A DNA stretch of 32,000 nt from NCBI RefSeq assembly GCF_000016745.1, contig NC_009483.1, forward strand, positions 1,740,001 to 1,772,000. The letters are read 5' to 3'. Shown one piece after another: positions 6,052 to 26,110 of the stretch. The DNA comes from Geotalea uraniireducens Rf4. Its GTDB lineage: Bacteria > Desulfobacterota > Desulfuromonadia > Geobacterales > Geobacteraceae. A program made the position numbers and the translations under genes. Under the pieces are notes generated by a model. It searched no databases. It saw only the letters and a program-made list of their open reading frames with translations, and was not told the origin of the DNA. Position 1 is the first letter of the stretch, and each line of letters opens with the position of its first letter.

Positions 6052-6199
6052 TTAATCCCAAAAACGGCTGTTAGCCACGAATGACACGAATAAACACGAA
6101 TGTTATTAACCCCTTGTTATGTCTTGAGTAGTCAGCAGTCTGGTGAGTGTCTTCTGCATCAGAAGAGCTTATATATTTGTGCAAATTCGTGAAAATTCG
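6052..6199. repeat. Palindromic repeat element E1, part upstream of the intron
   Basis: The outer arm TTAATCCCAAAAACGGCTGTTAGCCACGAAT is the imperfect inverse of the sequence after the intron (ATTCG|TGGCTAAAATGCTTTTTATAGG). It carries three CACGAAT subrepeats at 6075-6104. The whole element recurs reverse-complemented at 18822-18950 plus 21024-21052. Confidence 0.65.
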
Positions 6200-6767
6200 G
6201 TACGCCAGGCCAAGCCTGGCTGATCTATCTGACTGAAAAGTGTCAGACATGTAAATTGCTCGTTCACCATGTAGTCGCGGTCTGTCACGAGAGGGTAACC
6301 AAACGTGGGGAGTAAGACCGGTTCTTTGTAAGAAAAGAGCGAAGGGTACGATAACTACCCTGACGACGAAGACGCGAGCCCAGCGCAAGCGAACCCGTTT
6401 CGGCCTCGTTACACGTAGTTGACAGTGGCCAACCTTCCGAATGTGGTGAAGCCTGCCACCCACCGGTGATAAACGAGCGAAAGAACCGGTGGGACTGTCC
6501 GGGGTGATTGGGGAGGGCGCGTGTCGAAAGATCAGCCGAGGAACCTGGGAGGTCCGACGTAATTCCCAAAGCGAAAGGGTTTCGCCGAAGGGAGAACGCC
6601 GACGGGGAATCAATAACCCGCCAAGCGTGTACGGTCGGAATTCGGAGCGGCCCATAGTAGCCGGGAAGCGGGGTAATGCCCGTGGAGCCAAGGGGCCGTA
6701 CTTCAGTCATGTTTACACGGAAAGAGAGGAGACCCGCTTGAGCGACAGACGCTCCATAACGGAATGG

Positions 6768-8072
6768 ATGGCCGAAGGATTCGAACCTGAACCCGGACTG
6801 CCGGTAAAAGTCTCCCTTCTGCGGTGGAAACTGAGCAGCAAGGCCAAACGAGAACCGCAGTTCCGGTTCTATGCCCTTTACGACCGAATCCATCGTCGTG
6901 ATGTACTTGAAACGGCGTGGTTGCGAGTAAAGGCGAACAAGGGCGCGCCGGGAGTCGATGGTGTCAGCATTGAATCCATCGAGGTGCGGGCAGACGGAAT
7001 ATCCGGCTATCTTGACGAAATTCAAGAAAGCCTGAGAACCAAAAACTACAAACCATCCCCGGTGCGTCGCGTCTACATCACCAAGCCCAACGGCAAACTG
7101 CGCCCGCTCGGCATACCGTGCGTGCGGGACAGAATTGTACAGGCAGCCGTACTCCTTATCCTCGAACCGATATTTGAGGTGGACTTTCTCGACTGCTCCC
7201 ATGGATTTCGTCCCAAAAGGCGTCCCCATGGAGCCCTCGACCAAGTCGGTAATAACCTCCAACTCGGACGGCAGGAAGTGTATGACGCGGATCTTTCGAG
7301 CTACTTTGACAGCATCCCCCACGAGCACCTGATAGTAGAACTTGAGCGGCGCATAGCCGACCGGAGTGTCCTCAAACTGATCCGGCAATGGCTTCACAGT
7401 CCGGTAGTAGAAGAAGACGGCAGCATCAGCCGTCCCAAACAAGGGACGCCACAAGGCGGGGTAATATCTCCCCTTCTTGCCAACATCTACCTTCACCGGC
7501 TCGACCGGGCCTTTCACGAAGAAGCAGACAGCCCCTACCACTTCGCCAGAGCGCGCATGGTACGGTTTGCCGACGACTTCGTAGTAATGGCCAGACACAT
7601 GGGCAATCGCATAACCGGATGGCTGGAAGAGAAACTCGAAACAGACCTTGGACTCAGCATCAACCGTGACAAAACCGGTATTGTCAGAATGAACAAGAAA
7701 GAGAGCCTGAACTTTCTGGGATTCACCCTCCGCTATGACCGTGACCTGCGGGGCAGAGATTGGGATTATCTCAACATCATGCCGAGTAAGAAGGCCATAG
7801 GAGCACTCAAGGGAAAAATCCGGGAGAAGACCCGAAGCGGATACAAAAAGCCGCTTGTCGAAGCAATTGCCGAGGTAAACAGCATCCTTCGCGGATGGGG
7901 CAACTACTTCGACTACGGGTATCCCCGGAAAGTATTTCGAGACGTGAATCATTACACGAGGACTCGCTTTCGAATATTTCTGAACAATCGGAGCCAAAGG
8001 CGGAGCAAACCCTTCAGGGCAGGTGAAAGCCTGTATGCCGGACTTAAGCGATATGGTCTGGTTTACCTGTAA
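6768..8072 (+). CDS. Group II intron-encoded reverse transcriptase/maturase (no endonuclease domain)
   Basis: 434 aa counted from the ATG at 6768 ([10 protein letters not shown]). The track ORF extends upstream to 6489 through ribozyme sequence. Motifs: [50 protein letters not shown] (YADD variant), and maturase X motif RGWGNYF. The protein ends shortly after X, so there is no HNH/En domain. Confidence 0.92.
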
Positions 8073-8123
8073 CAGCAAAGCCACAACTCCTCAATAATGC
8101 CGTGCAGCAAGAGGCTGATAGGT

Positions 8124-8272
8124 AAGCCGTATGCGGGAAATCCGCACGTACGGTTTGACGAGGGGGAGCTGGTTAAGGCAACTATGGTAAGGCTACTTAG
8201 GCACCGCCAAACGAAAGGGGCGGAAACGGACAAGCCAAACCTAATGATGTCGTAACCTGCTTCCTACTCTAC
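8124..8272 (+). ncRNA. Group II intron domains V and VI (ribozyme core and branch site)
   Basis: Domain V is AAGCCGTATGCGGGAAATCCGCACGTACGGTTT (8124-8156), with an AGC triad, a 2-nt bulge region and a GAAA loop. In domain VI, 8160-8169 GAGGGGGAGC pairs with 8259-8269 GCTTCCTACTC, leaving A8266 bulged 6 nt before the 3' end. An 89-nt insertion (8170-8258) extends domain VI. Confidence 0.7.
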
Positions 8273-8295
8273 TGGCTAAAATGCTTTTTATAGGT
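8273..8295. repeat. Palindromic repeat element E1, arm downstream of the intron
   Basis: TGGCTAAAATGCTTTTTATAGG is the exact reverse complement of 18822-18843. It abuts the miaA stop codon at 8296. Confidence 0.6.
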
Positions 8296-11893: not shown

Positions 11894-12220
11894 ATGGAGG
11901 GGAATAGAGTGGGTGATATGGTCCTGGAAAAACGGAAGGAGAAAAAACGGACAGGATTTAAGAAGCTTGCCGTCAGAGCGGGAATCGGCATCGGCGCCAT
12001 TGCCAATGTCTGCTACCTGTATGCGAACCATGCCCGTCAGGGAATTCAGGGGGGCATGTCGCCCCCCGACCCGGTCTGGGCGCAGTTTGTCAACGTGGCG
12101 CTGATCTTCTTTGCAGCCATCTATACGGCAAATTTGCTTGGTAAGGGTCTTGAGCGGGTGCTGCCGGCCGGCAGAAAAGTTGAAAAGTCTGATAAGAGAA
12201 GCGAAATTTCCCGGCGATAG
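11894..12220 (+). CDS. Small hypothetical membrane protein
   Basis: There are two hydrophobic stretches (AGIGIGAIANVCYLY, VNVALIFFAAIYTANLL) and a basic N-terminus. A GGAGGGG SD precedes the in-frame GTG at 11909, so the start may be 11909 or 11918. The competing antisense ORF 11888..12232 looks less protein-like. Confidence 0.4.
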   Translation: MEGNRVGDMVLEKRKEKKRTGFKKLAVRAGIGIGAIANVCYLYANHARQGIQGGMSPPDPVWAQFVNVALIFFAAIYTANLLGKGLERVLPAGRKVEKSDKRSEISRR

Positions 12221-12247: not shown

Positions 12248-12427
12248 CTAGGCGCAATCTTCCCGCCAGAGACAGTTTCCCTGTCCACACTCCATGGCCT
12301 TGCCGCTGGCAAAGCATTCTTCATTCCCTTCCGTGTTCTGGATTGTTTTGATGAGCTCGGTTTTTTTCATTTTTCCGGTCTTGATTCCATGTTGCTTCGC
12401 GATTTCCTTGATGTCTTCCACTTTCAT
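12248..12427 (-). CDS. Small SAP / Rho_N-domain protein with C-terminal Cys cluster (59 aa, absent from ORF track)
   Basis: Hand translation gives MKVEDIKEIAKQHGIKTGKMKKTELIKTIQNTEGNEECFASGKAMECGQGNCLWREDCA. A GGAGGAAATC SD sits directly upstream of the ATG. The helix-extended-helix KTGKMKKTELI is typical of the Rho N-terminal/SAP motif. Confidence 0.7.
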   Translation of the reverse strand: MKVEDIKEIAKQHGIKTGKMKKTELIKTIQNTEGNEECFASGKAMECGQGNCLWREDCA

Positions 12428-12860
12428 GATTTCCTCCGGCAGATTGATGTCCGTATTTTTTTGTCACAGCAGTTTCTAATTTTATCAGGAAGATTATCAG
12501 TCGCAACCTTGCAAGGGCGATTTCCTCCAAAATAATTCGTTCTGCTCACTAAACCGGCACAGCCGGAACCAAAAAATTTTATTTCACGCACCAAAAGTAG
12601 GCGCTTTTAAGCGACGACGCAGCGACGCAACGAAAGGCTTTTAAATAAATTATTGGTTCATGGTTTTAAAACGTCGCGTGAGTCATGTCTTGCTTTAACA
12701 TTTTGCTCACATATTGTAACGACTCAAGTAGGACCCAAAGGGCCTAAAGGGCGGCGCTTGCTCCGGCCAATCGTCACACAGCATTAACACGATCACAACG
12801 CCCATTTAACAATGTTTTTGTAACATAGCTACAAATAGTCGTTCCCCTTTAAAAAATACG

Positions 12861-15338
12861 ATGGAGGAACCCTTGCATCATAACCATAGCCAATTCCCGG
12901 GACGACATAACTCTGTTGCCGGGGAAGAGGCGGAATTACCGGCCGCCATTCTTGCCCGCCTTGGTATACATCAGGGCCTCTCCCACGATCTCCTCGAATC
13001 ATTGCCGTTTTCGTCCCATGACACAACAGCCGGTTCCGAAACCGAATTGCAGGCGGTGGTAGCCGGCTGGCGACATGATGTGGACCTGCCGCTCGTCATC
13101 GAACAATCCAACTATTACGCCAACATTCTCAAACGGGCGGCTGCCGGTGAAACACCGAGACGTCTGGCCGGCGACCTGGAACGCTTTATCAGCGACAACA
13201 GGGAGAGGGTCTGGGAAAACAGCTGGGTGAGGTTTCCGCGCCGGGTCCTTTCACCCTATGCCGGCCGGGTGTTCGACGCTGATCTCCTGGCTGACAAGGG
13301 GAATCCGGGCGGCGGAAGACGCAGTGATGCGCCTCGTTTCATCTTTCACGATAATGAGGGGGAGGAGTATCTCCGTGTACCGATCAGCTACCTGATCAAG
13401 CTGGCCCTGGCTGACCTGCTCGGCTCGCAGCATGATCTGCCCGGGGCGGTGCAACTGACCGGCCGGCGGCTTATGAACCACTACCTCAACGACAACACGT
13501 CGCCGGAGACATTCTCGTTTTATGTGGTGCCGCTCCGCCCCGAAACCGGCATGGGGCGGGAAATAGCCCGCGAGACGGCCAAGCGCTTTCTCGTGACCCA
13601 GCTGCTGGTCATGTACGCAAACGAAAGCTTCGAACTCACGGCGCGCGGGCAGAGGGCGATGATTTACTTCGCCCCCCATCCACCACTCAGGCAGAAAGAG
13701 CTCAACGACATCGTCTCCGATGCCTTCTATCGGGAGCTGTTCATGAGCCCGTGCTTGTCAGGCTGGCAGAAGGGAGAAGAAAAGTACCGCTACATGCAGC
13801 TTTGCCACCAGGTTCTCTCCCGCAGCCAATTGAATGGCGTGGCAAAATTGCGGGAAGCGGGGATCATCACCAACAACCTGGTGGTGTTGCCATCCGTTTC
13901 AAATGTGAGCCTGGCCAACAACGGCACCCATCTGAGCCTCGGCAGCCGCATATTGAGCCGTGCCCTCAAAGATGAGGCATCTGGCTTCAACGCGACCCAC
14001 GAAAAGCATCTCGGCGACCTGACAATCAAGATGGTCGAGCATTTCCTGCCGCTCTTCGTCGGAACCTATAGTGCAGCGCCTTACCGGCTGGGCTATACGG
14101 ATTTCCATCCGGAGCGGGCGCTCGGATTCCTCGCCCATGAATTGGATTATACCCATTTGCGCATGATCTGGCGGCGCTGGAAGAAAAAAGCGAGCCTGTC
14201 GGTATTCGGCCGGCCGCTCACCCCCTTCGGCCCGAAGTGGCTCGACCGGATGCTGAGCGGCATGTTTGCGCTGAAGGGAGATTTTGTCCCCGATTTCCGC
14301 TTGGTGGATTACCTGGTATGTCTTCTCAGCACCGATCAGAGCCCGGCGCTGGATGGCACACCCGGCAATACCGACCGGCTGCGGAAGGACCTGGCCGATT
14401 TAGGGGTGTTCGACAGCCAGATGTCGGTCTATCTCCTCTATAAGCTGCGGGAATCCGCGACCATGGGGTTTTCCGGTTTCGAGGGACGTCATTACAGCCA
14501 GTTTGCCGACCTGGAGGAGGATCTGGGGCGGGCAGCCGACCTGCAAACCCTGCTTAACGCCCTGGCGTTCAAGTATATGGCGGACGGCAGGCTCAACCAC
14601 GCGTTGATCCCCGATGACCCGACGGTGGAGAGCGAGCGGCGGCAGATCTTTTTCGGTGCGGCTGTCGGCATCCCTACCTTTTATGTGCACCGGCAAAGCA
14701 ACAACCATTTCCTGAAGCGTATCCTGGCGCGTACCCGGAATATCCGTCAAAGCCGCCGCTATCCCAATTACCTGCGGGTCCAGAACCTGGAATACCGTCG
14801 GGCATTGATTCTGTTGCTGCAAGAGGACGCAGCTGACTTGATCGAGTCGCTCCGTCTCGGGGAGACCATCCGTGACCTGCAGGCGAGGATTGAGGCTCCC
14901 GACGAGTGTTCCACCATGGGGAAGCTGACCAGCGGCATTCTTGCCGAGGCCGGTGCAGCCGGCCCCATGGCCATGGGAGCCGGTGATTTCAACCGGGCTG
15001 CCGAACGATATTACCGGGAAACCTTGCGCAGGCGCCATATGGAAGAGGCATTCCATTTTCTGGAAGAAGATTTCCGGCGGCTTGACCGGCACCGGTCAAA
15101 TACGGAACTACCGGGGGTGGCAGCGCTTCGTGTTACGGCACGGGATCAATCCACGTCCGATTTCCTGAAGCTTGTGAAACGCGATGTGCTCAATGAATCC
15201 GCCTCGCTGGAGACCCTGCGAAAACTGACCAACCTGGTTTTGCTCTCCATTTATCACGACAGGGCCGATGCCGATGCCCTGCTGGAAGAAAGTCTACCCA
15301 ATGAAAACCATTCAGCACCAGTATATAGAGCGGGATAG
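12861..15338 (+). CDS. 825-aa protein of unknown function, with possible GCS2/YbdK-like carboxylate-amine ligase motifs
   Basis: This is a long uninterrupted ORF with no TM segment. The central motifs GTHLSLG (13923-13943) and HFLPLFVGTYSAAPYRLG (14040-14093) resemble the GQHVHVG / FVPHFIALSASSPY pair of YbdK-type ligases as I recall them. No SD precedes the ATG at 12861; a GGAGG inside codons 1-3 precedes the in-frame TTG at 12873. Confidence 0.8.
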   Translation: MEEPLHHNHSQFPGRHNSVAGEEAELPAAILARLGIHQGLSHDLLESLPFSSHDTTAGSETELQAVVAGWRHDVDLPLVIEQSNYYANILKRAAAGETPRRLAGDLERFISDNRERVWENSWVRFPRRVLSPYAGRVFDADLLADKGNPGGGRRSDAPRFIFHDNEGEEYLRVPISYLIKLALADLLGSQHDLPGAVQLTGRRLMNHYLNDNTSPETFSFYVVPLRPETGMGREIARETAKRFLVTQLLVMYANESFELTARGQRAMIYFAPHPPLRQKELNDIVSDAFYRELFMSPCLSGWQKGEEKYRYMQLCHQVLSRSQLNGVAKLREAGIITNNLVVLPSVSNVSLANNGTHLSLGSRILSRALKDEASGFNATHEKHLGDLTIKMVEHFLPLFVGTYSAAPYRLGYTDFHPERALGFLAHELDYTHLRMIWRRWKKKASLSVFGRPLTPFGPKWLDRMLSGMFALKGDFVPDFRLVDYLVCLLSTDQSPALDGTPGNTDRLRKDLADLGVFDSQMSVYLLYKLRESATMGFSGFEGRHYSQFADLEEDLGRAADLQTLLNALAFKYMADGRLNHALIPDDPTVESERRQIFFGAAVGIPTFYVHRQSNNHFLKRILARTRNIRQSRRYPNYLRVQNLEYRRALILLLQEDAADLIESLRLGETIRDLQARIEAPDECSTMGKLTSGILAEAGAAGPMAMGAGDFNRAAERYYRETLRRRHMEEAFHFLEEDFRRLDRHRSNTELPGVAALRVTARDQSTSDFLKLVKRDVLNESASLETLRKLTNLVLLSIYHDRADADALLEESLPNENHSAPVYRAG

Positions 15339-16317
15339 CGGTACGGTCCGTACCGAACGACTCTTCGGCGACCGACTCATCAGGTTCCTCTACAACAGCG
15401 TCAGGGAGAATGCCCCGCTGCTTTTCCGGGCGCTCACGAGTTCATGGAACTCCAGCCTGCTCGGATTCATGAACTACGATCTCTCTCTTGGCGGGCGAAT
15501 TGACCGAAACGGCAGCTTTTTAAGGGAATGCGGCGTCGATCTGACCGAGTGCCTGGACAGCCCGGAGTCTCTGAACACGCCACGCAAGGTGTTCGAACGC
15601 AAGATCCGTTACCGGGATTGCCGCCCCATGCCGGATGACCCCGACGCTGTTGTCTCGCCTGCCGATGCACGAGTGATTGTCGGCTCGTTTCGAGAGACTT
15701 CCGGCCTGTTCATCAAAGAGAAATTCTTTTCCTATGCCGAGTTTTTCGGCCATGACAAGCGGGAATGGCTGGAACGGTTCAGGGACGGCGACTTTGCGGT
15801 TTTCCGCCTGACTCCCGACAAGTATCACTACAACCATACCCCCGTCTCCGGTCAAGTTCTGGACATTTATGAACTGACCGGTGATTACCATTCATGCAAC
15901 CCGGCGGCAGTGGTGACGGTCGTCACCCCCTATTCGAAGAACAAGAGGGTGGTAACCGTCATTGACACCGATGTGCCGGGCGGAACCCGGGTCGGCCTGG
16001 TGGCCATGGTCGAGGTGGTGGCCCTGATGATCGGTGAAATCGTCCAGTGTTACAGCGATGACGAGTATCGGACGCCGCGGCCGGTTATGCCCGGTCTGTT
16101 TCTGTACAAAGGTTTTCCAAAGAGCCTCTACCGCCCCGGCAGCAGCACCGATGTGCTGATTTTTCAGAAAGAGCGGATCGAGTTTGCCGCCGACATCGTG
16201 CAAAATATGTCCCACCCCACTGCCGTGAGCCGTTTTTCCTCCGGTTTCGGCAGGCCTCTGGTGGAAACGGATGTCAGGGTTCGCTCCCTGATTGCCAAGG
16301 CAGTAAAAACACTATAA
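15301..16317 (+). CDS. psd: Phosphatidylserine decarboxylase-family pyruvoyl proenzyme
   Basis: I chose the ATG at 15301 (MKTIQHQYIERDSG); the track start is 15268. It has the PSD motifs RLTPDKYHYNHTPVSG and a self-cleavage-type GSST in YRPGSSTDVLIF. It overlaps the upstream ORF by 38 nt. Confidence 0.8.
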   Translation: MKTIQHQYIERDSGTVRTERLFGDRLIRFLYNSVRENAPLLFRALTSSWNSSLLGFMNYDLSLGGRIDRNGSFLRECGVDLTECLDSPESLNTPRKVFERKIRYRDCRPMPDDPDAVVSPADARVIVGSFRETSGLFIKEKFFSYAEFFGHDKREWLERFRDGDFAVFRLTPDKYHYNHTPVSGQVLDIYELTGDYHSCNPAAVVTVVTPYSKNKRVVTVIDTDVPGGTRVGLVAMVEVVALMIGEIVQCYSDDEYRTPRPVMPGLFLYKGFPKSLYRPGSSTDVLIFQKERIEFAADIVQNMSHPTAVSRFSSGFGRPLVETDVRVRSLIAKAVKTL

Positions 16318-16340
16318 CCACAAACTTCAGGAGCCGAACC

Positions 16341-17393
16341 ATGAATGAAGAGTTGTTTATTATTGTCCTGCTGGTCCTTTCCGTCCTGTTGTTTCGCTGG
16401 GGGGGGAAGACCCTGCCCGGTGAACGCTGGCAGATCTTTGCGACGGTTCCCGCTGACAGTCATGGAGATGGTCGTTGGGCCGGGATAAACTTTACCTGGT
16501 ACGGTTTGCTGACCGCAAACGCTTACGTGGTTGCAGTTGCCATGGTTTTAATCCTCTTGGGGGCCGTAGGAGTGCCCATATCCGGCATTCTTGTCATGGT
16601 TGCAGCCCTGCTGGTTTTCTGCGTGCCCGCTTCCAGGCTGGTAGCCTGGCTGGTGGAAAAGAAGGCGCACACCTTCACCGTCGGTGGGGCAGTTTTTGTC
16701 GGGATGCTGATCGCCCCGTGGGTCGTGGTGGCGACCAACCGTAGCGCGGGAGCATTCCTGGGCTACCATGTTCCGGTTATGGCGGCGCTGGCAGCCATTT
16801 CCATTGCCTATGCATTCGGCGAAGGACTGGGACGGCTGGCATGCATCAGTTTCGGTTGCTGTTACGGTAAACCGTTATCCGCTTGCCATCCCCTTCTGCA
16901 AAGGGTTTTCCGCCGCTACAGTGTCATCTTTACCGGCAAGACCAAGAAAATAGCCTATGCCGGCGGCATGGAGGGCGTGAAGGTGCTGCCGGTTCAGGCG
17001 CTCACGTACATCATCTATGTGGGAACGGGTCTGTTCGCCACCATGCTGTTTCTCAAAACACACTTTACCGGCGCATTCGTTGCGGCAACGACGGTAACCC
17101 AAGGGTGGCGCATACTGTCGGAACTGCTGCGCAACGATTACCGCGGCACAGGTAAAATATCCGCCTACCAGGTGATGGGAGGCATTGCAATCGTCTATGC
17201 CTGGGGCGTTGCCCTTGTATTCAAAGGCACGCCGGCGCCGGTCATGGATTTCACGGCAGGGATCGGCTCCCTCTGGAATCCACTCGTGATCATCACCCTT
17301 CAATTGCTTTGGTTCACCATCTTTCTCTACACCGGCCGCAGCATGGTAACCGGCGCGACTATTTCCTTTCATGTCCACCAGGACAGGATCTGA
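16341..17393 (+). CDS. Lgt-family (prolipoprotein diacylglyceryl transferase-like) polytopic membrane protein
   Basis: 350 aa with about 7 hydrophobic helices. By eye it is collinear with E. coli Lgt: WYGLL, GGAVFVG, GEGLGRLACISFGCCYGKP (versus GAGRLGNFINGELWGR), PVQALTYIIY, GWRILSELLRNDYRG (versus FRIIVEFFRQPD). The gap after the psd-like gene is 23 nt. Confidence 0.75.
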   Translation: MNEELFIIVLLVLSVLLFRWGGKTLPGERWQIFATVPADSHGDGRWAGINFTWYGLLTANAYVVAVAMVLILLGAVGVPISGILVMVAALLVFCVPASRLVAWLVEKKAHTFTVGGAVFVGMLIAPWVVVATNRSAGAFLGYHVPVMAALAAISIAYAFGEGLGRLACISFGCCYGKPLSACHPLLQRVFRRYSVIFTGKTKKIAYAGGMEGVKVLPVQALTYIIYVGTGLFATMLFLKTHFTGAFVAATTVTQGWRILSELLRNDYRGTGKISAYQVMGGIAIVYAWGVALVFKGTPAPVMDFTAGIGSLWNPLVIITLQLLWFTIFLYTGRSMVTGATISFHVHQDRI

Positions 17394-17446
17394 TCCCTAT
17401 TCGGTTCCGGCTTTGCCGGCTCAGGTCAATAGCCTACCTGAATAGC

Positions 17447-17580
17447 ACTAATCTTCCGCAGCAGTTACCCTCCCTTTGAGAAAGGGGGGCAAGGGGGGAT
17501 TTTCCCGGCTGCAATGAAAGGCAAATCCCCCTAAATCCCCCTTTCATAACGGGGGACTTGGTCTTTCGGAAGATTGGTAC
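17447..17580. repeat. Structured palindromic element between convergent genes (G/C-tract hairpins, flanking inverted repeat)
   Basis: The inverted repeat is AATCTTCCG (17450-17458) / CGGAAGATT (17567-17575). Internal hairpins are CCCTCCCTTTgagAAAGGGGGG (17468-17489), GGGGGGATTT...AAATCCCCC (with a duplicated AAATCCCCC) and TCCCCCtttcataacGGGGGA. The right end overlaps the pstS stop codon. Confidence 0.5.
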
Positions 17581-18611
17581 TAATCGGCAAAGCTTATGCT
17601 CCTGATCGTCTCTTCAACCATAGTTACCACATGGGATGGGAGCGGCACATAAAGCTGAAGATATGCCATCTTCTGGCCGTAACGGATGCTCCAGTTCAGA
17701 AATTCAACCAGCTTTTTCCCTTTTGCCGGGTCTCGCTGGTGCTGATGGACAAGTAGCCAGGTAAATCCCGCCATGGGATAACTGTCCCTCCCCGGTTGAT
17801 TAACCAGGGATGCCCGGTAATCGGCAGGAATGGATGCAACGGTCTGGGCGACCGCTGCGCTGATCGTTTTCAGGTCGGGAAGCACGAATCTTCCGCTTCT
17901 GTTTCTGATGGCGGCATAAGCGAGGTTTTCTTCACTGGCGTAGATGAGTTCCGAATAGCCGATTGAATAAACATGCTTTTTAACCTCTACGGTTACGCCT
18001 GCGTTACCTTCACGACCATACCCCACCGGCCAGCTGACCGTCGTCCCCCGGCCGACCAGCCTGGCCCAGCTGGAACTGACTGCACTCAGATATTCGGTGA
18101 AGATGCTCGTAGTGCCGCTCCCGTCGGAACGATGCACAACAGCGATCTCCTTGTCGGGTAGCCTGAGGTTCTTGTTGAGCACCGCGATTCGTGGATCATT
18201 CCAGCGCACTATCCTGCCGAGAAAAATGTCGGCGACAACATCCGGGGTTAGTTTCAGCCCCTTGCCGATGCCGGGAATGTTGTAGGTAATCGCAACTGCA
18301 CCAATAACCGTCGGTATGTGAAGAATCTTTTCCGGCACGGATTTAAGCTGTTCGTCGGACAGAAACTTGTCGGTTGCACTGAAATCGAGAGTGCCGGCCA
18401 GCATCTGCCTGACACCGCTTCCACTGCCGATGGGCTGGTAGTTGAATGTCACGGAAGGGTCGACCCGGGCGTACTCCTTGAACCAGGTGGCATAGAGGGG
18501 ATAGGGAAAGGTAGCGCCTGCGCCGGTAATGATTGTTTGCCCCGGGACAGCCAATGCCGGCGCTGAAAGAACAAACAAAACGATCAGCAGGATATACCAA
18601 TTATTTCGCAT
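17580..18611 (-). CDS. pstS: Phosphate ABC transporter substrate-binding protein, paralogue 1
   Basis: I moved the start to the ATG at 18611 (MRNNWYILLIVLFVLSAPALA, a signal peptide). It has GAGATFPYPLY, SGSG and HRSDGSGTT motifs, and is similar throughout to the other two pstS copies. Confidence 0.9.
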   Translation of the reverse strand: MRNNWYILLIVLFVLSAPALAVPGQTIITGAGATFPYPLYATWFKEYARVDPSVTFNYQPIGSGSGVRQMLAGTLDFSATDKFLSDEQLKSVPEKILHIPTVIGAVAITYNIPGIGKGLKLTPDVVADIFLGRIVRWNDPRIAVLNKNLRLPDKEIAVVHRSDGSGTTSIFTEYLSAVSSSWARLVGRGTTVSWPVGYGREGNAGVTVEVKKHVYSIGYSELIYASEENLAYAAIRNRSGRFVLPDLKTISAAVAQTVASIPADYRASLVNQPGRDSYPMAGFTWLLVHQHQRDPAKGKKLVEFLNWSIRYGQKMAYLQLYVPLPSHVVTMVEETIRSISFAD

Positions 18612-18681
18612 GTTTACTTTTCCTTTCGCACTGACTTTGTGTTTATATAGTAGCATATCATTTTTGATATTAATTTTACTT

Positions 18682-18821: not shown

Positions 18822-18950
18822 CCTATAAAAAGCATTTTAGCCACGAATTTTCACGAATATACAAGCTTTTGTGAAGCAGAAGACACTCACCAGATCGGTG
18901 ACTAGATTTAACAATGGGTTAAAAACATTCGTTTTTATTCGTGTCATTCG
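18822..18950. repeat. Palindromic repeat element E2 (reverse orientation relative to E1), part upstream of the intron
   Basis: CCTATAAAAAGCATTTTAGCCACGAAT... is about 85 percent identical to the reverse complement of E1, with small indels. It ends ...CGTGTCATTCG immediately before the intron. Confidence 0.65.
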
Positions 18951-21023
18951 GTACGCCAGGCCAAGCCTGGCTGATCTATCTGACTGAAAAGTGTCAGACA
19001 TGTAAATTGCTCGTTCACCATGTAGTCGCGGTCTGTCACGAGAGGGTAACCAAACGTGGGGAGTAAGACCGGTTCTTTGTAAGAAAAGAGCGAAGGGTAC
19101 GATAACTACCCTGACGACGAAGACGCGAGCCCAGCGCAAGCGAACCCGTTTCGGCCTCGTTACACGTAGTTGACAGTGGCCAACCTTCCGAATGTGGTGA
19201 AGCCTGCCACCCACCGGTGATAAACGAGCGAAAGAACCGGTGGGACTGTCCGGGGTGATTGGGGAGGGCGCGTGTCGAAAGATCAGCCGAGGAACCTGGG
19301 AGGTCCGACGTAATTCCCAAAGCGAAAGGGTTTCGCCGAAGGGAGAACGCCGACGGGGAATCAATAACCCGCCAAGCGTGTACGGTCGGAATTCGGAGCG
19401 GCCCATAGTAGCCGGGAAGCGGGGTAATGCCCGTGGAGCCAAGGGGCCGTACTTCAGTCATGTTTACACGGAAAGAGAGGAGACCCGCTTGAGCGACAGA
19501 CGCTCCATAACGGAATGGATGGCCGAAGGATTCGAACCTGAACCCGGACTGCCGGTAAAAGTCTCCCTTCTGCGGTGGAAACTGAGCAGCAAGGCCAAAC
19601 GAGAACCGCAGTTCCGGTTCTATGCCCTTTACGACCGAATCCATCGTCGTGATGTACTTGAAACGGCGTGGTTGCGAGTAAAGGTGAACAAGGGCGCGCC
19701 GGGAGTCGATGGTGTCAGCATTGAATCCATCGAGGTGCGGGCAGACGGAATATCCGGCTATCTTGACGAAATTCAAGAAAGCCTGAGAACCAAAAACTAC
19801 AAACCATCCCCGGTGCGTCGCGTCTACATCACCAAGCCCAACGGCAAACTGCGCCCGCTCGGCATACCGTGCGTGCGGGACAGAATTGTACAGGCAGCCG
19901 TACTCCTTATCCTCGAACCGATATTTGAGGTGGACTTTCTCGACTGCTCCCATGGATTTCGTCCCAAAAGGCGTCCCCATGGAGCCCTCGACCAAGTCGG
20001 TAATAACCTCCAACTCGGACGGCAGGAAGTGTATGACGCGGATCTTTCGAGCTACTTTGACAGCATCCCCCACGAGCACCTGATAGTAGAACTTGAGCGG
20101 CGCATAGCCGACCGGAGTGTCCTCAAACTGATCCGGCAATGGCTTCACAGTCCGGTAGTAGAAGAAGACGGCAGCATCAGCCGTCCCAAACAAGGGACGC
20201 CACAAGGCGGGGTAATATCTCCCCTTCTTGCCAACATCTACCTTCACCGGCTCGACCGGGCCTTTCACGAAGAAGCAGACAGCCCCTACCACTTCGCCAG
20301 AGCGCGCATGGTACGGTTTGCCGACGACTTCGTAGTAATGGCCAGACACATGGGCAATCGCATAACCGGATGGCTGGAAGAGAAACTCGAAACAGACCTT
20401 GGACTCAGCATCAACCGTGACAAAACCGGTATTGTCAGAATGAACAAGAAAGAGAGCCTGAACTTTCTGGGATTCACCCTCCGCTATGACCGTGACCTGC
20501 GGGGCAGAGATTGGGATTATCTCAACATCATGCCGAGTAAGAAGGCCATAGGAGCACTCAAGGGAAAAATCCGGGAGAAGACCCGAAGCGGATACAAAAA
20601 GCCGCTTGTCGAAGCAATTGCCGAGGTAAACAGCATCCTTCGCGGATGGGGCAACTACTTCGACTACGGGTATCCCCGGAAAGTATTTCGAGACGTGAAT
20701 CATTACACGAGGACTCGCTTTCGAATATTTCTGAACAATCGGAGCCAAAGGCGGAGCAAACCCTTCAGGGCAGGTGAAAGCCTGTATGCCGGACTTAAGC
20801 GATATGGTCTGGTTTACCTGTAACAGCAAAGCCACAACTCCTCAATAATGCCGTGCAGCAAGAGGCTGATAGGTAAGCCGTATGCGGGAAATCCGCACGT
20901 ACGGTTTGACGAGGGGGAGCTGGTTAAGGCAACTATGGTAAGGCTACTTAGGCACCGCCAAACGAAAGGGGCGGAAACGGACAAGCCAAACCTAATGATG
21001 TAGTAACCTGCTTCCTACTCTAC
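18951..21023 (+). mobile_element. Group II intron, copy 2 (2073 nt)
   Basis: It is identical to 6200-8272 except T19685 (C6934 in copy 1; Ala to Val in KANKGAP) and A21002 (C8251 in copy 1, in the domain VI insertion). Confidence 0.9.
19519..20823 (+). CDS. Group II intron-encoded reverse transcriptase/maturase, copy 2
   Basis: It is the same 434-aa protein as 6768-8072 with one substitution (KVNKGAP). Confidence 0.92.
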
Positions 21024-21052
21024 TGGCTGACTGCCGTTTTGGGGTTAATAGG
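21024..21052. repeat. Palindromic repeat element E2, arm downstream of the intron
   Basis: TGGCTGACTGCCGTTTTGGGGTTAATAGG matches the reverse complement of the E1 left arm at 18 of 21 positions over its first 21 nt. It overlaps the stop codon of pstS paralogue 2. Confidence 0.6.
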
Positions 21053-22079
21053 TAATGCTGCTGATGGTTTTTCCCACCATGTCGGCCAGTTTCTCGTGGA
21101 GCGGCGTATAGAAGAGCGTTGATGTCATTTTTTCAGCCTTTCTCAACTCCCAATTGAGAAACTCAACCAGTTTCTTCCCCTTTACCGGATCCTTCTGCTG
21201 CTGATAGACAAGAAGCCAGGTGAAACCGACGATAGGATAAGCCTCTTTCCCCGACTGATTGACGAGAGATATGCGGTAATCATCCGTAATCCGATTCACC
21301 GCATCGACCGTTGCAGCCCGCACCGAACGCATGGTCGGGTTGACGAATCGGCCGCTTTTGTTTTTCAGAGCAGCGGCAGGAAGATTGTTCACCATTGTAT
21401 AGGCATTTTCCACATAACCAATGGTAAAGGGTACGGTCTTGATCTGATTCACTATCTCGCCACTCCCTTTGCCGCCAATGCCGACCGGCCACTCAACGGT
21501 GGTTCCTTTGCCGATTTTCCGAGCCCATTCGCCACTCACGCCGGAAAGATAATCGGTAAAGATATTGGTCGTCCCACTGCCGTCAGAACGATGAACTACG
21601 ATGATGCCCTTATCGGGAAGATGCAGCTTTTTATTGACGGAAGCGAGACGCGGATCATTCCAGCGGGTGATTTTGCCCAGAAAAATATCGCTCAGGATAT
21701 CCGGTGTAAGCTTCAGCCCTGAACCTGCACCAGGCAGATTGTAGGTTATCGCCACTGCCCCCATCACCGTCGGTATCTGGAGGAGTTTGCCGGGTGCAGC
21801 TTTCAATTCCTCGTCGGTGAGAAATTTGTCTGAAGCACCGAAATCGATTGACTGAGCCATGATTTGCTTAATGCCGCCACCGCTGCCGACAGCTTCATAG
21901 CTGAAGAAAACCTCAGGGTCAACCACGGCGTAATCCCTGAACCATTTACTGTAGAGCGGATATGGAAACGTCGCACCGGCGCCTTTCAGGACAGTTTCTG
22001 CAAAAGCCTGCCCCGTCGTTGCAGCCATTACCAGCAAAACCAGTACAAAAATACGTTTACAAATCGTTTTGACCATCAA
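21045..22079 (-). CDS. pstS: Phosphate ABC transporter substrate-binding protein, paralogue 2
   Basis: 344 aa with signal peptide MMVKTICKRIFVLVLLVMAATTGQAFA and the motifs GAGATFPYPLY and HRSDGSGTT. Confidence 0.9.
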   Translation of the reverse strand: MMVKTICKRIFVLVLLVMAATTGQAFAETVLKGAGATFPYPLYSKWFRDYAVVDPEVFFSYEAVGSGGGIKQIMAQSIDFGASDKFLTDEELKAAPGKLLQIPTVMGAVAITYNLPGAGSGLKLTPDILSDIFLGKITRWNDPRLASVNKKLHLPDKGIIVVHRSDGSGTTNIFTDYLSGVSGEWARKIGKGTTVEWPVGIGGKGSGEIVNQIKTVPFTIGYVENAYTMVNNLPAAALKNKSGRFVNPTMRSVRAATVDAVNRITDDYRISLVNQSGKEAYPIVGFTWLLVYQQQKDPVKGKKLVEFLNWELRKAEKMTSTLFYTPLHEKLADMVGKTISSITY

Positions 22080-22144: not shown

Positions 22145-23419
22145 CTATGGAGTGGCGGACGGCCTGGCCAGCAGATACCCCTGACAGAGCGTCACGCCGA
22201 TGTCTCGAAGGTAGTCCAATTCCTCCTCGCGCTCGACCCCTTCGGCAATGACCTTTGCCCCGATCTTGCCGCAGAAGGTGACGAGCGCTTCGACGAGGGC
22301 CTGCCTGGTGGATGAGGCGTCGATGTCGCAGATGAGGAACCGGGCGAGTTTTACATAGTCGGGTTCCATCCGGGCGAGCATTTTCAGGCCGGCATAACCG
22401 GAACCCAGGTCGTCGATGGCGATGGAATAACCTTGTTCCCGATAGTAGGAGAGGACCCGGTTGAACAGCTCGTAATCCTCGATCAGTGTTCGTTCCGTCA
22501 GCTCAAAAGTGATGCTGGAGCGCTGGATCCCCAGTTCGTCCAGCAATGCGGCGGTAACTCCCCTTTTATGGTCGTTTGCCTGGAGGAGACTCGGGCAGAC
22601 ATTGAGGAAGAGCCGCCCGGAAATTCCCAGCTCTTTGGCCCTGATGAGCGCCTTTCTGCGGCATAGCCTCTCCAGGGGGAAGGTGAGGCCGTATTCGCCC
22701 GATTTTGCGAAGAGCAGCTCCGGGTCGGCGAGGTGGCTCGGCCTGCTGACGCGGCTCAATGCTTCATAACCGTAGACGGAGCCGTCACACAGGGAGATAA
22801 TCGGCTGGAAGAGGGGGGTAATCAAACCGTTGGCGATGATTTCCTCTATTTCACGCCGGTCTGCGCTCTGCTGCACAACAGGCGATGCAGAGGCGCTGAA
22901 AAGCTCCTGGAAGGCCCTGAAAAGGGCGTTGTCGGCATTTTCTTCGTCGCGGTTGGAGAGGAAGACCCCGTCGAGCCTGAACAAGGCATCGACCGTTTCC
23001 GTGTTGTAAAATGTTTTTCTTTTTATATGGCTGAGAGAGAAATAACTGCGGAGTTCCCGGCGGATTACTTCAATATCCTCGTGGAAATGTTGTTCGCAGT
23101 AGTCGCCGCTGGGTACGAGGAGCAGAAAGTATTCGCCGTCGGCAGCCTTGTAACCGCCTTCAATGCGCCCTGTGAGCCGTTTATCCATCATCCTGATGAA
23201 AAGGGCGATGGCTTTGCCGGCAGTTTCCATGCCATGGCCACTGTTGGCAAAGTTGAGCGCCACTATGCCTGCGTGCCCCGAACTCTTCAGGTGTTCCTTG
23301 AATTTCAAAAACAGGTAGCTGCAGTCGCTGAAAGAATCTTCCAATCTCGGAATGCGGCGCCGATAGACGGTGGTTGACTGCTGCGGTATAAGTGGTAAAG
23401 CTGTCACCTGCACCTCCAT
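22145..23419 (-). CDS. Degenerate-GGDEF / EAL-domain protein (putative c-di-GMP phosphodiesterase)
   Basis: EAL motifs are present: YEALSR, LNVCP, FELTER, DDLGSGYAGL, AEGVE, QGY. The N-terminal half resembles a GGDEF domain, but the signature reads KAADGEYFLLL. I chose the ATG at 23419 (MEVQV); the track start, a GTG at 23599, has no SD and its extension looks non-protein-like. Confidence 0.8.
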   Translation of the reverse strand: MEVQVTALPLIPQQSTTVYRRRIPRLEDSFSDCSYLFLKFKEHLKSSGHAGIVALNFANSGHGMETAGKAIALFIRMMDKRLTGRIEGGYKAADGEYFLLLVPSGDYCEQHFHEDIEVIRRELRSYFSLSHIKRKTFYNTETVDALFRLDGVFLSNRDEENADNALFRAFQELFSASASPVVQQSADRREIEEIIANGLITPLFQPIISLCDGSVYGYEALSRVSRPSHLADPELLFAKSGEYGLTFPLERLCRRKALIRAKELGISGRLFLNVCPSLLQANDHKRGVTAALLDELGIQRSSITFELTERTLIEDYELFNRVLSYYREQGYSIAIDDLGSGYAGLKMLARMEPDYVKLARFLICDIDASSTRQALVEALVTFCGKIGAKVIAEGVEREEELDYLRDIGVTLCQGYLLARPSATP

Positions 23420-23436
23420 GCTTTTTCCGGTGAACG

Positions 23437-23583
23437 TCAGTCGTTGAGGAGCGCGGCCAGATATTCTCCGTAATGTCCCACGTTGGCTGCATGGTAGGAA
23501 TCCCGTAACGCCTTCAGTTTGGCTATCTGCTGGTCCATTTCTGAAAAATCCAAGAGAGAAAATTCCAAGCATGTCAGTTTCAT
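23437..23583 (-). CDS. 48-aa micro-ORF between the STAS and EAL genes (absent from ORF track)
   Basis: Hand translation gives MKLTCLEFSLLDFSEMDQQIAKLKALRDSYHAANVGHYGEYLAALLND. An AAGGAG SD lies 7 nt upstream. It starts 28 nt after the STAS stop and ends 17 nt before the EAL ATG. Confidence 0.5.
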   Translation of the reverse strand: MKLTCLEFSLLDFSEMDQQIAKLKALRDSYHAANVGHYGEYLAALLND

Positions 23584-23611
23584 AATCATTCTCCTTCACG
23601 ATTTTCGACTG

Positions 23612-23926
23612 TTATACCTTGGCAGGGGTTGCCAACAGGAATATTCCGGTCATTTTGAAGAGCATGGTGTTCATGGGGGTAAGGCCGACAAGTTCGATAT
23701 CGGCCTTTTTCTCCTCCCTGATGGCCTTGAAACAGCGGAGAAGAAGAGCGATCCCCATTGAATTGATTCTGCCGGTCTTGCTGAAGTCGATGGTGACCTT
23801 CGGCTGCTTGACTTTTGCCGGAAGTTCTTTCAGCTGTTTTTCCGCCTGGGCGTCGATGTTGCCGTTCAGCGCGAAGTAATCGTATTGTGGAAAACGGTCA
23901 GGAACGATGTGTAATAGTGCATCCAT
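23612..23926 (-). CDS. STAS-domain anti-sigma-factor antagonist (RsbV/SpoIIAA-like)
   Basis: 104 aa from the ATG at 23926, which has an AAGGAG SD. The STAS core has the phosphorylatable-Ser region IDFSKTGRINSMGIALLL. Confidence 0.8.
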   Translation of the reverse strand: MDALLHIVPDRFPQYDYFALNGNIDAQAEKQLKELPAKVKQPKVTIDFSKTGRINSMGIALLLRCFKAIREEKKADIELVGLTPMNTMLFKMTGIFLLATPAKV

Positions 23927-24899
23927 TGATTTTCTCCTTTTCGGTAGTAGTGATGTGGAAGCCGCGCGGCGCTTCAGGCGGGAAGGGTGATGATACACGC
24001 AAATGCCCACCAACGACGGTCTGATTTCCCGGGGTTATGTTCACATGAAACTGGTCGAGAAATCGCCAGATGATGAACAGGCCACGCCCGCCGATGTCAT
24101 CCGGCAGCCCGATGCTGTTCTGGTTCCTGGCCAGATATTCCATGATCATGTCTGGCGCGAGGCTTCCCCAGTTGTCCGCCATTTCCATGGCAAGGGTTTC
24201 GCCGTCAAAGGCAAAACTAAAGACGATCTTCTCACCGGGGAGGAGCGACCTCTGCTCCCCTTTTCTGAATATCTTGTTGCCGTCGGCCCCTTTGGGCGCC
24301 CCATAGAAAGCGTTTTCCAGCATTTCGTCCGCCAGTAGCGCCCCTTTCTGCCGAAGCAGTTCATGTTCGGCCGTTTCACCTTGAACCATGCTTTCTATCG
24401 TACCTATTACCTGCTCTTTTTCATTAGAAGACGAGAGCTGAAAAACATGGATTTGTGTGCCGTCTTTCACATATTCGGCAATCTCCCATTTTTGTTTGTT
24501 GACGAGGTTGTTTACGGCAAGCAACAGAGGCGACTGATTTCTGCACAAAGCGGCGTTTTGCGAGATGGGTTCGATAACCAGATGTCTGACTTTGTCGGTC
24601 AGGAGCCGTTCAATCTGCGGGAAGGGAGCGACGGTCGACGAGAGCACCAGAATTTCCATTCTCGGGAAATTATTCTTCAGCTCTTTGATAAGTTCCGGCA
24701 TCATAGTGGGATAAAGAGCGCCGGAAACAATCGCCAGTCGCGGATTTATTCCCAATCCGCGCATGTTGTCGAGGGTAACGAGTAGAAAGCGATTGGCGAT
24801 TATCCTGATGACTTCGGGAATCATGCTCAAGGAGCTGTACCAGGTATTTTCATCGTCGGCATCAGCGAACAGCGCCAGAACGGGATCGTTTAACTGCAT
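23898..24899 (-). CDS. RsbW/SpoIIAB-like serine kinase (HATPase_c) with about 170-aa N-terminal domain of unknown type
   Basis: The C-terminal half has an N-box-like LADEMLENAFYGAP and a G-box GGRGLFIIWRFLDQF. An AAGGAG SD lies 7 nt before the ATG. The 3' end overlaps the STAS gene by 29 nt. Confidence 0.7.
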   Translation of the reverse strand: MQLNDPVLALFADADDENTWYSSLSMIPEVIRIIANRFLLVTLDNMRGLGINPRLAIVSGALYPTMMPELIKELKNNFPRMEILVLSSTVAPFPQIERLLTDKVRHLVIEPISQNAALCRNQSPLLLAVNNLVNKQKWEIAEYVKDGTQIHVFQLSSSNEKEQVIGTIESMVQGETAEHELLRQKGALLADEMLENAFYGAPKGADGNKIFRKGEQRSLLPGEKIVFSFAFDGETLAMEMADNWGSLAPDMIMEYLARNQNSIGLPDDIGGRGLFIIWRFLDQFHVNITPGNQTVVGGHLRVSSPFPPEAPRGFHITTTEKEKINGCTITHRS

Positions 24900-24916
24900 G
24901 GTAGTCTCCTTAATTG

Positions 24917-26110
24917 CTATAGTGTCGAGGACGCAATGAGAATAGTTACGTCATCAGCAAAGGACCGGGTACCGGTAAATTTTTCGAGTGCTTCCAGCAG
25001 CAGTTTCCTTGCAATATCGGGCGGCAGAGTGACATGTTCGTTGAGAAAGGCTTCCAGTCTCTCATAGCCGAAATCTTCTCCCGCCTTGTCCGTGCATTCG
25101 ACAATACCGTCGGAGTAGAGGAAGAGGGTATCGCCAGCCTCGAACGTTGCAGAGCATTCCTGGAAACGGCAGTTCTCCTCGAACCCGAGGGGGAAGCCGG
25201 AAGCGTCTTCCACCATCTCCAGCGACCCGGTCCCGGATTTGTACAGATAGGGGAAGTTGTGACCAGCATTGGCGATGACGAGCCGCCCTTGCTTTGGATT
25301 GATTACCGCTATCAGGCAGGTCATGAGCAGGGTCTGGCGGGCCGTGGTGAGAATGGCGTTGTTCATGCCGAAGAGCAGTTCAGCGGGCGTATCGATTCCC
25401 AGGGAGATGAGTGTGTGGAGGCTCGCCTTGGCAGCGGTGGTCACCATTCCCGATTGGACGCCGTGACCGCTTACGTCGGCAACCACAAGTCCCAGCCTGT
25501 CATTGCCCAGAGGGAAGTAATCAAAATAATCTCCGCCGATTTCCGATGATGTGGTGATCCCTCCACTGACCCTGATTTTGTCGAAAGAGGAGTCGGGGAG
25601 GGGGAGGAGCGCCTGCTGGATTTCGCCGGCTTTCCTCACTTCATCCGTGATGCGGGCGCTGAGGCGTTCGAGGGCGCCAAGGAGCAGCGCCTGATTGGCG
25701 GAGATGTTCATCATCAGATCGGAAACGGATACAATGCCGATGCACTGTTCTCCCTCCGTAACGGCAAAACAATCGGTCTCCAGCAGTGGATCTACAGCCA
25801 GGAGTCTCGCCAATGCATCACTGACCTCCAGTTCCGGTTCCATACAGACGCAGTTTTTTTCCAGCAGTATCCTGATCGGTTTTTTCCCGTAGAGTTCCAG
25901 GGCAAAAGGTCGTCCCAGATGATGATAAAAGAGCAATTTGCGGCTGATAACACCGCAGAACCTTCTTCCGTCGGCAACCGGTATCGCCAGGATCGACGGG
26001 TCGTTCTTGAAGATTTCCAACACGTCGTTTACCGCAAGGTCTGGACTTATCGTTTCGGTTGTCTTTACGATTTCTCTTAAACAGTGGGTCACATGGTGGG
26101 CATTTTCCAT
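24917..26110 (-). CDS. CBS-pair / PP2C (SpoIIE/RsbU-type) serine phosphatase
   Basis: 397 aa. The N-terminal tandem CBS-like region has IAIPV...GVISRKLL and IGIVSVSDLM. The PP2C metal-binding motifs GGDYFDYF, ADVSGHGVQSG, YSDGIVE and DDVTIL are present. Confidence 0.85.
   Translation of the reverse strand: MENAHHVTHCLREIVKTTETISPDLAVNDVLEIFKNDPSILAIPVADGRRFCGVISRKLLFYHHLGRPFALELYGKKPIRILLEKNCVCMEPELEVSDALARLLAVDPLLETDCFAVTEGEQCIGIVSVSDLMMNISANQALLLGALERLSARITDEVRKAGEIQQALLPLPDSSFDKIRVSGGITTSSEIGGDYFDYFPLGNDRLGLVVADVSGHGVQSGMVTTAAKASLHTLISLGIDTPAELLFGMNNAILTTARQTLLMTCLIAVINPKQGRLVIANAGHNFPYLYKSGTGSLEMVEDASGFPLGFEENCRFQECSATFEAGDTLFLYSDGIVECTDKAGEDFGYERLEAFLNEHVTLPPDIARKLLLEALEKFTGTRSFADDVTILIASSTL

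Follow-up and report, generated by a model that had tools for sequence, protein, structure and literature searches.

Within a stretch of 32,000 nucleotides (nt) from Geotalea uraniireducens Rf4 (the window, whose positions are used throughout), we identified three adjacent genes that encode, in order, a ligase-like protein of an unnamed family (gene 1), a member of the phosphatidylserine decarboxylase (PSD) family (gene 2) and a membrane protein with a divergent Lgt fold (gene 3). This trio probably makes or remodels an undescribed membrane lipid, since its genes are conserved together beside phosphate-starvation and lipid-remodelling genes. More specifically, we see an even chance that the three form a phosphate-starvation pathway on the cytoplasmic side of the membrane, in which a polar lipid head group is built or remodelled in three steps. 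By analogy with the parent enzymes, the product is possibly a non-canonical, phosphorus-free aminolipid based on diacylglycerol. The evidence comes from how the genes are arranged, from the families or folds to which the proteins belong, from the catalytic residues that are kept or altered, from synteny, and from a recurrent neighbourhood of phosphate-regulon (Pho), phospholipase C and GT4 glycosyltransferase genes.

Conservation of the gene trio

The three genes are co-directional open reading frames (ORFs) with a 38-nt overlap between the first two and a 23-nt gap before the third (Table 1), and the ORF list agrees here with what a first-pass annotation of this DNA had claimed. An AGGAG lies within the gap, 8 nt 5' of the gene 3 ATG. 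The first in-frame ATG of gene 2 is at 15268 and would lengthen the overlap to 71 nt; we prefer the start at 15301 because gene callers pick the same position on two near-identical contigs and orthologue lengths agree with it (median 336 amino acids, aa). Together the genes would constitute one translationally coupled operon. The motifs that the same annotation had quoted are all present: RLTPDKYHYNHTPVSG and GSST in gene 2, GTHLSLG and HFLPLFVGTYSAAPYRLG in gene 1, and GEGLGRLACISFGCCYGKP and RILSELLRND in gene 3.

When one genome was scanned per species, gene 1 was found in those of at least 535 species, and the locus analyses cover 82 loci. The 80 best loci belong to Geobacteraceae, other Desulfuromonadales, Syntrophales (Syntrophus buswellii, Smithella) and Desulfobacterales (Desulfonema), as well as to Brocadia, NC10, Nitrospinota, Nitrospiraceae and Acidobacteriota, and loci with the trio span at least six phyla. 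The genes are contiguous and co-directional in 67 of the 82 loci, while in eight all three lie within 10 kb with an insertion and in five they are cut by contig ends; one locus (L022) has no gene 3 within 10 kb, and another (L073) holds gene 1 alone. The overlap of the first two genes also recurs, the alignment of gene 2 beginning before that of gene 1 ends in 56 of 81 loci. Across phyla, identities reach 57-73% for gene 2 and 45-61% for gene 3. Conservation across Desulfuromonadota had been proposed as a check on the locus, and synteny was found to extend far beyond that group.

Phosphate and lipid genes around the trio

The Pho-regulon setting noted in the first-pass annotation (three pstS genes, pstCAB, phoU and psiE) is borne out in the window. 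Other lineages show the same association, again with phospholipase C and a glycosyltransferase. All flanking ORFs were clustered and Pfam was run on cluster representatives, with counts taken over all clustered loci. Found nearby were a PhoR-like kinase (23 loci), an OmpR/PhoB-type regulator (13 loci), a pstB/ABC ATPase cluster that includes some low-identity non-Pst ABC ATPases (13 loci), pstS (11 loci), phoU (9 loci), pstA/C (9 loci) and psiE (6 loci). In Citrifermentans bemidjiense, gene 1 (Gbem_1868) is separated from genes 2-3 by a histidine kinase, phoB, phoR and phoU, and the trio of Geobacter pickeringii adjoins a PstS-like binding protein, Ppx/GppA and a CHAD protein.

Lipid enzymes are the other recurrent element. 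A DUF2062 membrane protein (171 aa) directly follows gene 3 in 17 loci, and in 13 loci the operon runs on through it into a co-directional Zn-dependent phospholipase C of 312 aa and family PF00882 (L010, L011, L012, L014, L016, L023, L024, L029, L075 and others); the window has neither gene. In 22 loci there is an 816-aa GT4 glycosyltransferase, which is accompanied by a 732-aa protein without a match in Pfam or NCBIfam. Five loci of the Trichlorobacter type (L020, L028, L032, L035 and L039) have these two inserted between genes 2 and 3, and the pair also occurs in L003, L005, L010 and others. Among the 54 loci of at least 15 kb, 17 contain pstS, phoU, pstAC or psiE and 26 contain the phospholipase C or GT4, and in 39 of them a strict Pho gene, phospholipase C or GT4 lies within 10 kb. 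Two further companions recur: a 255-aa protein without a family match that lies close to gene 1 in 14 loci, six of which have it directly upstream and on the same strand, and a 147-aa DksA/TraR-type zinc-finger protein between genes 2 and 3 in five Smithella/Syntrophales loci (L026, L059, L064, L069 and L070).

Upstream of gene 1 in the window lie a sigma-70-like site (12784-12813) and an array of Pho-box-like heptamers in 11-bp phase. Canonical boxes occur in the window only before pstS and psiE; they define a local PhoB consensus and are built of the same TGTAACA/TTTAACR heptamers as this array.

Gene 3 has a divergent Lgt fold

Public annotation names the homologues of gene 3 prolipoprotein diacylglyceryl transferase, and the first-pass annotation likewise took it for an Lgt-type enzyme. 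The fold is indeed that of Lgt, but the protein is not an ordinary Lgt, being without residues essential to E. coli Lgt and with a predicted inversion of its topology. The window protein has no match to PF01790 at E<=1 and scores 21.8 bits against the equivalog model NF000778 (cut-off 334), and 33 of 35 orthologues match PF01790 (best 3.4e-14). Sequence and profile searches of the PDB returned spurious HisF matches only, so that orthologue Pfam matches, hhalign and Foldseek were needed to make the link to Lgt. The AlphaFold2 model of gene 3 (pLDDT 82.7, pTM 0.86) has a sole credible Foldseek match, Escherichia coli Lgt (PDB 5azb; prob 1.00, next best 0.18), and comprises the seven-helix Lgt fold with one extra helix at each end.

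Alignment with hhalign sets Lgt FGLGAGRLGNFINGELWGR against gene 3 FGEGLGRLACISFGCCYGKP, and GGMSFHGGLIG against GGAVFVGMLIA. In this alignment R143 and G154 of Lgt are kept as R165 and G176, whereas N146, E151 and H103 are replaced by C168, C173 and V120. Gene 3 therefore departs from the Lgt signature G142-R-x-G-N146-F-x-N-x-E151-x-W-G154, of which it keeps the arginine and the terminal glycine, and from the HGGL motif that contains H103. These replacements are themselves conserved, C168, C173 and the adjoining C174 being invariant among orthologues and V120 at least 90% conserved. Also invariant is the segment W256-R257-x2-S-E261-x2-R264-x-D266, in which R257, E261 and R264 correspond to Lgt R239, E243 and R246 by motif spacing (i, i+4, i+7), the segment lying outside the hhalign alignment.

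In E. coli Lgt, transfer is carried out by R143 and the R239/E243/R246 network, phosphatidylglycerol is selected by the signature motif and E151, and H103/HGGL is the proposed site for the lipobox peptide (PMC4728403). Moreover, E151A, E151Q and all H103 substitutions were inactive, every tested change abolishing complementation (PMC4728403, Mao et al. 2016). Comparison of these residues suggests that gene 3 retains the transfer machinery of Lgt without its donor filter and its protein acceptor site.

The distribution of charge differs as well. E. coli Lgt carries 12 lysines and arginines in its cytoplasmic loops and 5 in its periplasmic loops, whereas in the gene 3 family the homologues of the cytoplasmic loops have 1.4 in total and the homologues of the periplasmic loops 11.9, of which 7.0 fall in the 'head' loop 172-217. 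By the positive-inside rule, this inverted bias predicts that the core of gene 3 is inverted, so that its active-site cavity would open to the cytoplasm and not to the periplasm.

Gene 2 is a distinct member of the PSD family

Gene 2 matches PF02666 (E = 2.2e-36, 125.9 bits, cut-off 22) with an intact Asp-His-Ser triad, which substantiates the earlier description of a PSD-type decarboxylase. Residues D122, H176, H179 and S282 are invariant in 32 orthologues and equal D90, H144, H147 and S254 of E. coli Psd. The cleavage motif is G-S/S-T, the slash marking the cut (LGS254T in E. coli), and one orthologue has GGST; on these grounds we place the cut before the invariant S282. Identity to E. coli Psd is 27% over 183 residues, and gene 2 falls below every NCBIfam equivalog cut-off for PSD, including the best, NF001941 (133 bits vs 371), and TIGR00163 (79.9 vs 111.75). 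Judged from its sequence, gene 2 would be a catalytically competent member of the PSD family, in a distinct subfamily, and is predicted to be a self-processing pyruvoyl enzyme.

Against solved structures, the gene 2 family profile matches E. coli PSD at 1e-16 and the PsiD tryptophan decarboxylases at 2e-5 to 2e-4. These profile scores put gene 2 nearer to the lipid-acting PSD enzymes than to PsiD.

A weak structural link of gene 1 to glutamate-cysteine ligases

Gene 1 belongs to a large family, with 2925 matches in a 90%-identity collection and, at 50% identity, 786 clusters that include many fragments. The protein and 36 diverse relatives matched no model of Pfam or NCBIfam, PF04262 and PF04107 included, the Pfam scan of these 37 aligned members giving scattered chance matches only, and searches of PDB sequences with phmmer and with a profile (hmmsearch) returned nothing relevant. 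The AlphaFold2 model, with pLDDT 90.4 and pTM 0.91, was compared with the PDB by Foldseek, and the sole coherent group of matches consisted of glutamate-cysteine ligases (GCL) and PafA, which make up seven of the top ten (prob 0.33-0.99, E 1e-2 to 3e-1, TM 0.26-0.50). Within this group are GshF (3ln7, prob 0.99), GshA (3nzt, 2d32 and 1v4g, prob 0.89-0.93, TM up to 0.50 on the target), PafA (4bjr, prob 0.87) and yeast GCL (3ig5, prob 0.33).

Candidate counterparts of the ExE / E / GxH / ExR signature, which in GCL supplies metal and ATP ligands along a beta-sheet funnel, occur in gene 1 in the same order and local context. Paired by sequence context, without structural superposition, the E. coli GshA segments GLE27RE29TL, LLE67FITP, SGVH150YNFSL and YIE328VR330SLD correspond to GSE60TE62LQ, SPE216TFSF, NGTH357LSLGS and GFE541GR543HYS of gene 1. 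The residues concerned (E60, E62, E216, H357, E541 and R543) are invariant or near-invariant and lie on predicted strands. We consider it likely, given the modelled fold and these motifs, that gene 1 is an ATP-dependent carboxylate-amine ligase of the GCL/PafA fold.

The first-pass annotation had described gene 1 as ligase-like on the strength of a YbdK-like motif pair, and had proposed AlphaFold and Foldseek as a check. The motif pair pointed in the right direction, in that the conserved residues reproduce the GshA signature, and GCL/PafA proved to be the only coherent group. However, the link is structural and weak, with E values of only 1e-2 to 3e-1, and carries no sequence or profile signal.

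A proposed lipid pathway

From the chemistry of the parent enzyme families we infer a scheme whose substrates, step order, product and regulation, like the orientation of gene 3, are proposals. In the first step, gene 3 would move a diacylglyceryl group from a phospholipid to a small cytoplasmic acceptor of the amino-acid type (serine, cysteine or homoserine), releasing the phosphorylated head group inside the cell. Gene 2 would then decarboxylate the lipid-linked amino acid, as PSD does with phosphatidylserine, and gene 1 would form an amide on the resulting amine, or on a carboxylate, at the expense of ATP. Overall this would yield an aminolipid that is free of phosphorus, or poorer in it, and takes the place of phosphatidylethanolamine. 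We suggest tentatively, as a narrower and clearly less probable claim than a head-group pathway as such, that the trio makes an undescribed class of phosphorus-free diacylglycerol aminolipids by using an inverted, cytoplasm-facing Lgt homologue as a small-molecule diacylglyceryl transferase. By analogy, an example of such a product would be an ether- or thioether-linked diacylglyceryl-ethanolamine or -cysteamine with an amide-linked substituent.

Several observations weigh against the three-step scheme. No canonical 7-4-7 Pho box (<=2 mismatches) was found upstream of gene 1 in the window, the best match there having four mismatches (at 12695). Among orthologues, a 7-4-7 Pho-box-like repeat (<=3 mismatches) precedes gene 1 in 17 of 78 loci, compared with 3.2% of shuffles; this enrichment favours the scheme, yet it is inflated by the shared ancestry of the Geobacteraceae loci, which are not independent. 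Many loci have no Pho gene within 10 kb. The GCL assignment of gene 1 combines the weak Foldseek scores given above with short motifs, and hhalign gave a probability of 0.1 whether the target was the single E. coli GshA sequence or a profile of 12 GshA sequences, a shallow one whose homologues were all at least 82% identical. For gene 3, the topology is a prediction from the positive-inside rule, and the three invariant cysteines of its motif may point to other chemistry in which they form a thioester acyl-enzyme, for instance, or bind a metal.

This last point leads to the strongest competing explanation, to which we give slightly less weight than to the aminolipid class just described, namely a lipid pathway of different chemistry or purpose. 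Here the gene 3 cysteines would form an acyl-enzyme that yields N-acyl amines or lyso-lipids, or phosphatidylserine, phosphatidylethanolamine or phosphatidylglycerol would be dismantled for their phosphate. The replacement of N146 and E151 by invariant cysteines, beside a third, would suit the former, and the co-located phospholipase C and the Pho context suit scavenging as much as synthesis. On the other side, the Arg/Glu network by which Lgt transfers diacylglyceryl is strictly kept in gene 3, and an ATP-consuming ligase is hard to fit into a purely degradative route. Present evidence separates none of these variants from the scheme of diacylglyceryl transfer, decarboxylation and amide formation.

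We regard as improbable a soluble small-molecule product, for example a gamma-glutamyl amine or another decarboxylated amino-acid conjugate, with gene 3 serving only to anchor the complex or to export the product. PSD-family enzymes can act on free amino acids, as the PsiD matches of the gene 2 profile recall, and GCL-type ligases use soluble substrates; yet gene 2 is far closer to PSD than to PsiD, the catalytic Arg and Glu residues of a lipid transferase are invariant in gene 3, and the neighbours are lipid enzymes.

A shade more doubtful still is modification of a protein, in which the Lgt-like enzyme would lipidate a cysteine, the PafA/GCL-like ligase would attach or process a peptide tag and the decarboxylase would trim a terminal residue. 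The native acceptor of Lgt is a protein cysteine, and PafA, itself a protein ligase, is among the structural matches of gene 1. Lgt-like enzymes have moreover been postulated for C-terminal sorting tags (PMC11980579). Yet gene 3 has lost the peptide-binding HGGL motif, no conserved candidate substrate, sortase or tag gene appears among the clustered neighbours of the trio, the recurrent neighbours are lipid enzymes (phospholipase C and GT4) and Pho genes, and among solved structures gene 2 is nearest to PSD, which acts on lipids.

Least probable of all, and by our estimate very improbable, is that genes 2 and 3 are merely the housekeeping psd and lgt, for phosphatidylethanolamine and prolipoprotein lipidation, and chance neighbours of a hypothetical gene: the public annotation of gene 3 homologues and the strong PF02666 match of gene 2 would favour this, but both proteins score below their equivalog cut-offs, gene 3 is without H103 and E151, changes of which abolish complementation in E. 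coli (PMC4728403), and also without N146, its charge bias would leave the active site facing away from exported lipoproteins, and both genes travel with gene 1 across phyla at identities well above what we, as a matter of judgement, would expect of housekeeping orthologues, with one locus holding gene 1 alone and another lacking gene 3 nearby.

Flanks of the trio in the window

Table 1. Position, strand and description of features in and around the gene trio in the 32,000-nt window.
Feature	Position	Strand	Description
Small Rho_N/SAP-like gene	12248-12427	-	59 aa; N-terminal Rho_N/SAP-like domain, Cys-rich tail CFASGKAMECGQGNCLWREDC; divergent from gene 1
Intergenic/promoter region	12428-12860	.	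433 nt, between the divergent Rho_N/SAP gene and gene 1; ORF-free
Pho-box-like heptamer array	12773-12825	+	GTCACAC-n4-TTAACAC-n4-ACAACGC-n4-TTAACAA in 11-bp phase, then TGTAACA at 12819; not canonical 7-4-7
Gene 1	12861-15338	+	825 aa; soluble; unnamed family; predicted GCL/PafA-like ATP-dependent carboxylate-amine ligase with C-terminal helical domain
Gene 2	15301-16317	+	338 aa; PSD-family pyruvoyl decarboxylase; overlaps gene 1 by 38 nt
Gene 3	16341-17393	+	350 aa; 9-helix membrane protein, divergent Lgt fold, Cys-rich signature motif, predicted inverted topology
Structured G/C-run palindromic spacer	17394-17579	.	186 nt, between convergent gene 3 and pstS
pstS	17580-18656		
pstS	21045-22079		
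phoU	26291-26962	-	
pstB	27109-27867	-	
pstS	30033-31061		
Canonical Pho box	31113-31130	-	TGTAACAtggtTGTAACA, before pstS
psiE	31239-31676		
Canonical Pho box	31714-31731	-	TTTAACGaggcTGTAACA, before psiE

Upstream of gene 1, a non-coding leader of about 430 nt had been described. The intergenic region of that size exists, but it need not be a transcribed leader; because it borders the divergent 59-aa gene, we treat it as a shared promoter region. No Rfam match was found in it at E<=1, and a riboswitch or other RNA element in the gene 1 leader was rejected on that account. A 63-aa gene upstream of Gbem_1868 (L001, 7581-7772) occupies the same position as the 59-aa gene. Beyond the latter lies a 108-aa ORF with hydrophobic segments and no family match (11894-12220, +), and a 132-aa gene in Citrifermentans (L001, 7099-7497) has the same relative position.

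The structured palindromic element reported downstream of the trio is supported by its folding energy of -82.9 kcal/mol (z = -4.8), which none of 200 shuffles equalled. This spacer occurs once in the window, contains several inverted repeats and a terminator-like site at 17538-17555, and probably forms a terminator region that works in both directions.

Two copies of a group II intron (6100-8280 and 18850-21030, both +), 12751 bp apart, flank the region that holds the trio and one pstS. Each includes a reverse transcriptase/maturase ORF of 527 aa (6489-8072 and 19240-20823) and an Rfam RF00029 domain (8122-8272 and 20873-21023), and the copies are 100% identical over 300 nt, the sole stretch compared.

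Embedded in the pst cluster, at 22145-26110 (-), are genes for EAL-domain, STAS, HATPase_c_2 kinase-like and CBS-SpoIIE (PP2C) phosphatase proteins, a group reminiscent of a partner-switching module linked to phosphate signalling. At least five other loci also have SpoIIE homologues close to the trio. The spacer between phoU and pstB contains a 7-bp tandem repeat, GTTCGAA/GTTCTAA, of about 17 units (26960-27078).

Significance

Phosphorus-free lipids serve as markers of phosphorus stress in anoxic sediments and aquifers. To our knowledge, the known pathways for betaine, ornithine, glyco- and sulfolipids leave some of the lipids seen in these settings unexplained. The cassette occurs in the at least 535 species genomes counted above, including those of Geobacter, syntrophs, sulfate reducers, anammox bacteria and NC10, and a new lipid route in these groups, if true, would matter for biogeochemistry and for the interpretation of lipid biomarkers. 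It would represent a new route of phospholipid replacement in anaerobic sediment bacteria, anammox bacteria and NC10, and would give the Lgt fold its first function outside lipoproteins, possibly with an inverted topology. It would also define a large new family of GCL-fold ligases not covered by Pfam. Cultivable Geobacter strains would allow a direct test of the hypothesis.

Comparison with known systems

Our literature searches found no description of this gene combination, in keeping with the earlier statement that no described pathway of this composition was known, and the trio genes are not mentioned in a D. alaskensis fitness study or in the G. bemidjiensis genome paper. Each of the three proteins nonetheless has a close point of reference. 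Like E. coli Lgt, gene 3 has the Lgt fold and equivalents of R143, G154, R239, E243 and R246; unlike it, gene 3 has V, C and C in place of H103, N146 and E151, nine helices rather than seven, an inverted positive-inside bias, and a place in an operon with cytoplasmic enzymes. Gene 2 shares with E. coli Psd (PDB 6l06/7cnw) the PF02666 domain, the Asp-His-Ser triad and a Gly-Ser self-cleavage site, and differs from it in its low identity, its type-II-like GS/ST motif, its scores below the equivalog cut-offs, and its pairing with genes 1 and 3 instead of a recognisable pssA. No CDP-alcohol phosphatidyltransferase was found among the ten annotated recurrent neighbour families, no search aimed at pssA having been made. 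Gene 1 has its best structural matches in GshA, GshF, yeast GCL and PafA, and candidate counterparts of their ExE...E...GxH...ExR metal/ATP signature follow one another in the same order. Unlike GCL and PafA, members of the glutamine-synthetase-like carboxylate-amine ligase superfamily, it has no detectable sequence or profile similarity to that superfamily, is about 300 residues longer, and contains large insertions and a C-terminal helical domain.

As a system, the trio is best set beside the known forms of membrane remodelling under phosphate starvation, which include PlcP with BtaA/BtaB (the betaine lipid DGTS), the Agt/Pgt glycolipids and the OlsBA/OlsF ornithine lipids. As in those systems, the trio is tied to Pho genes, with phospholipase C and a glycosyltransferase co-located, and it would exchange a phospholipid for a nitrogen-containing lipid that is poor in phosphorus or free of it. 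Unlike them, it includes no enzyme of the BtaA/B, OlsA/B/F or PlcP families, and the Lgt-type diacylglyceryl transfer that we propose has no counterpart there. More generally, each enzyme of the trio belongs to a known superfamily, and phosphate-driven lipid remodelling is already a known kind of system.

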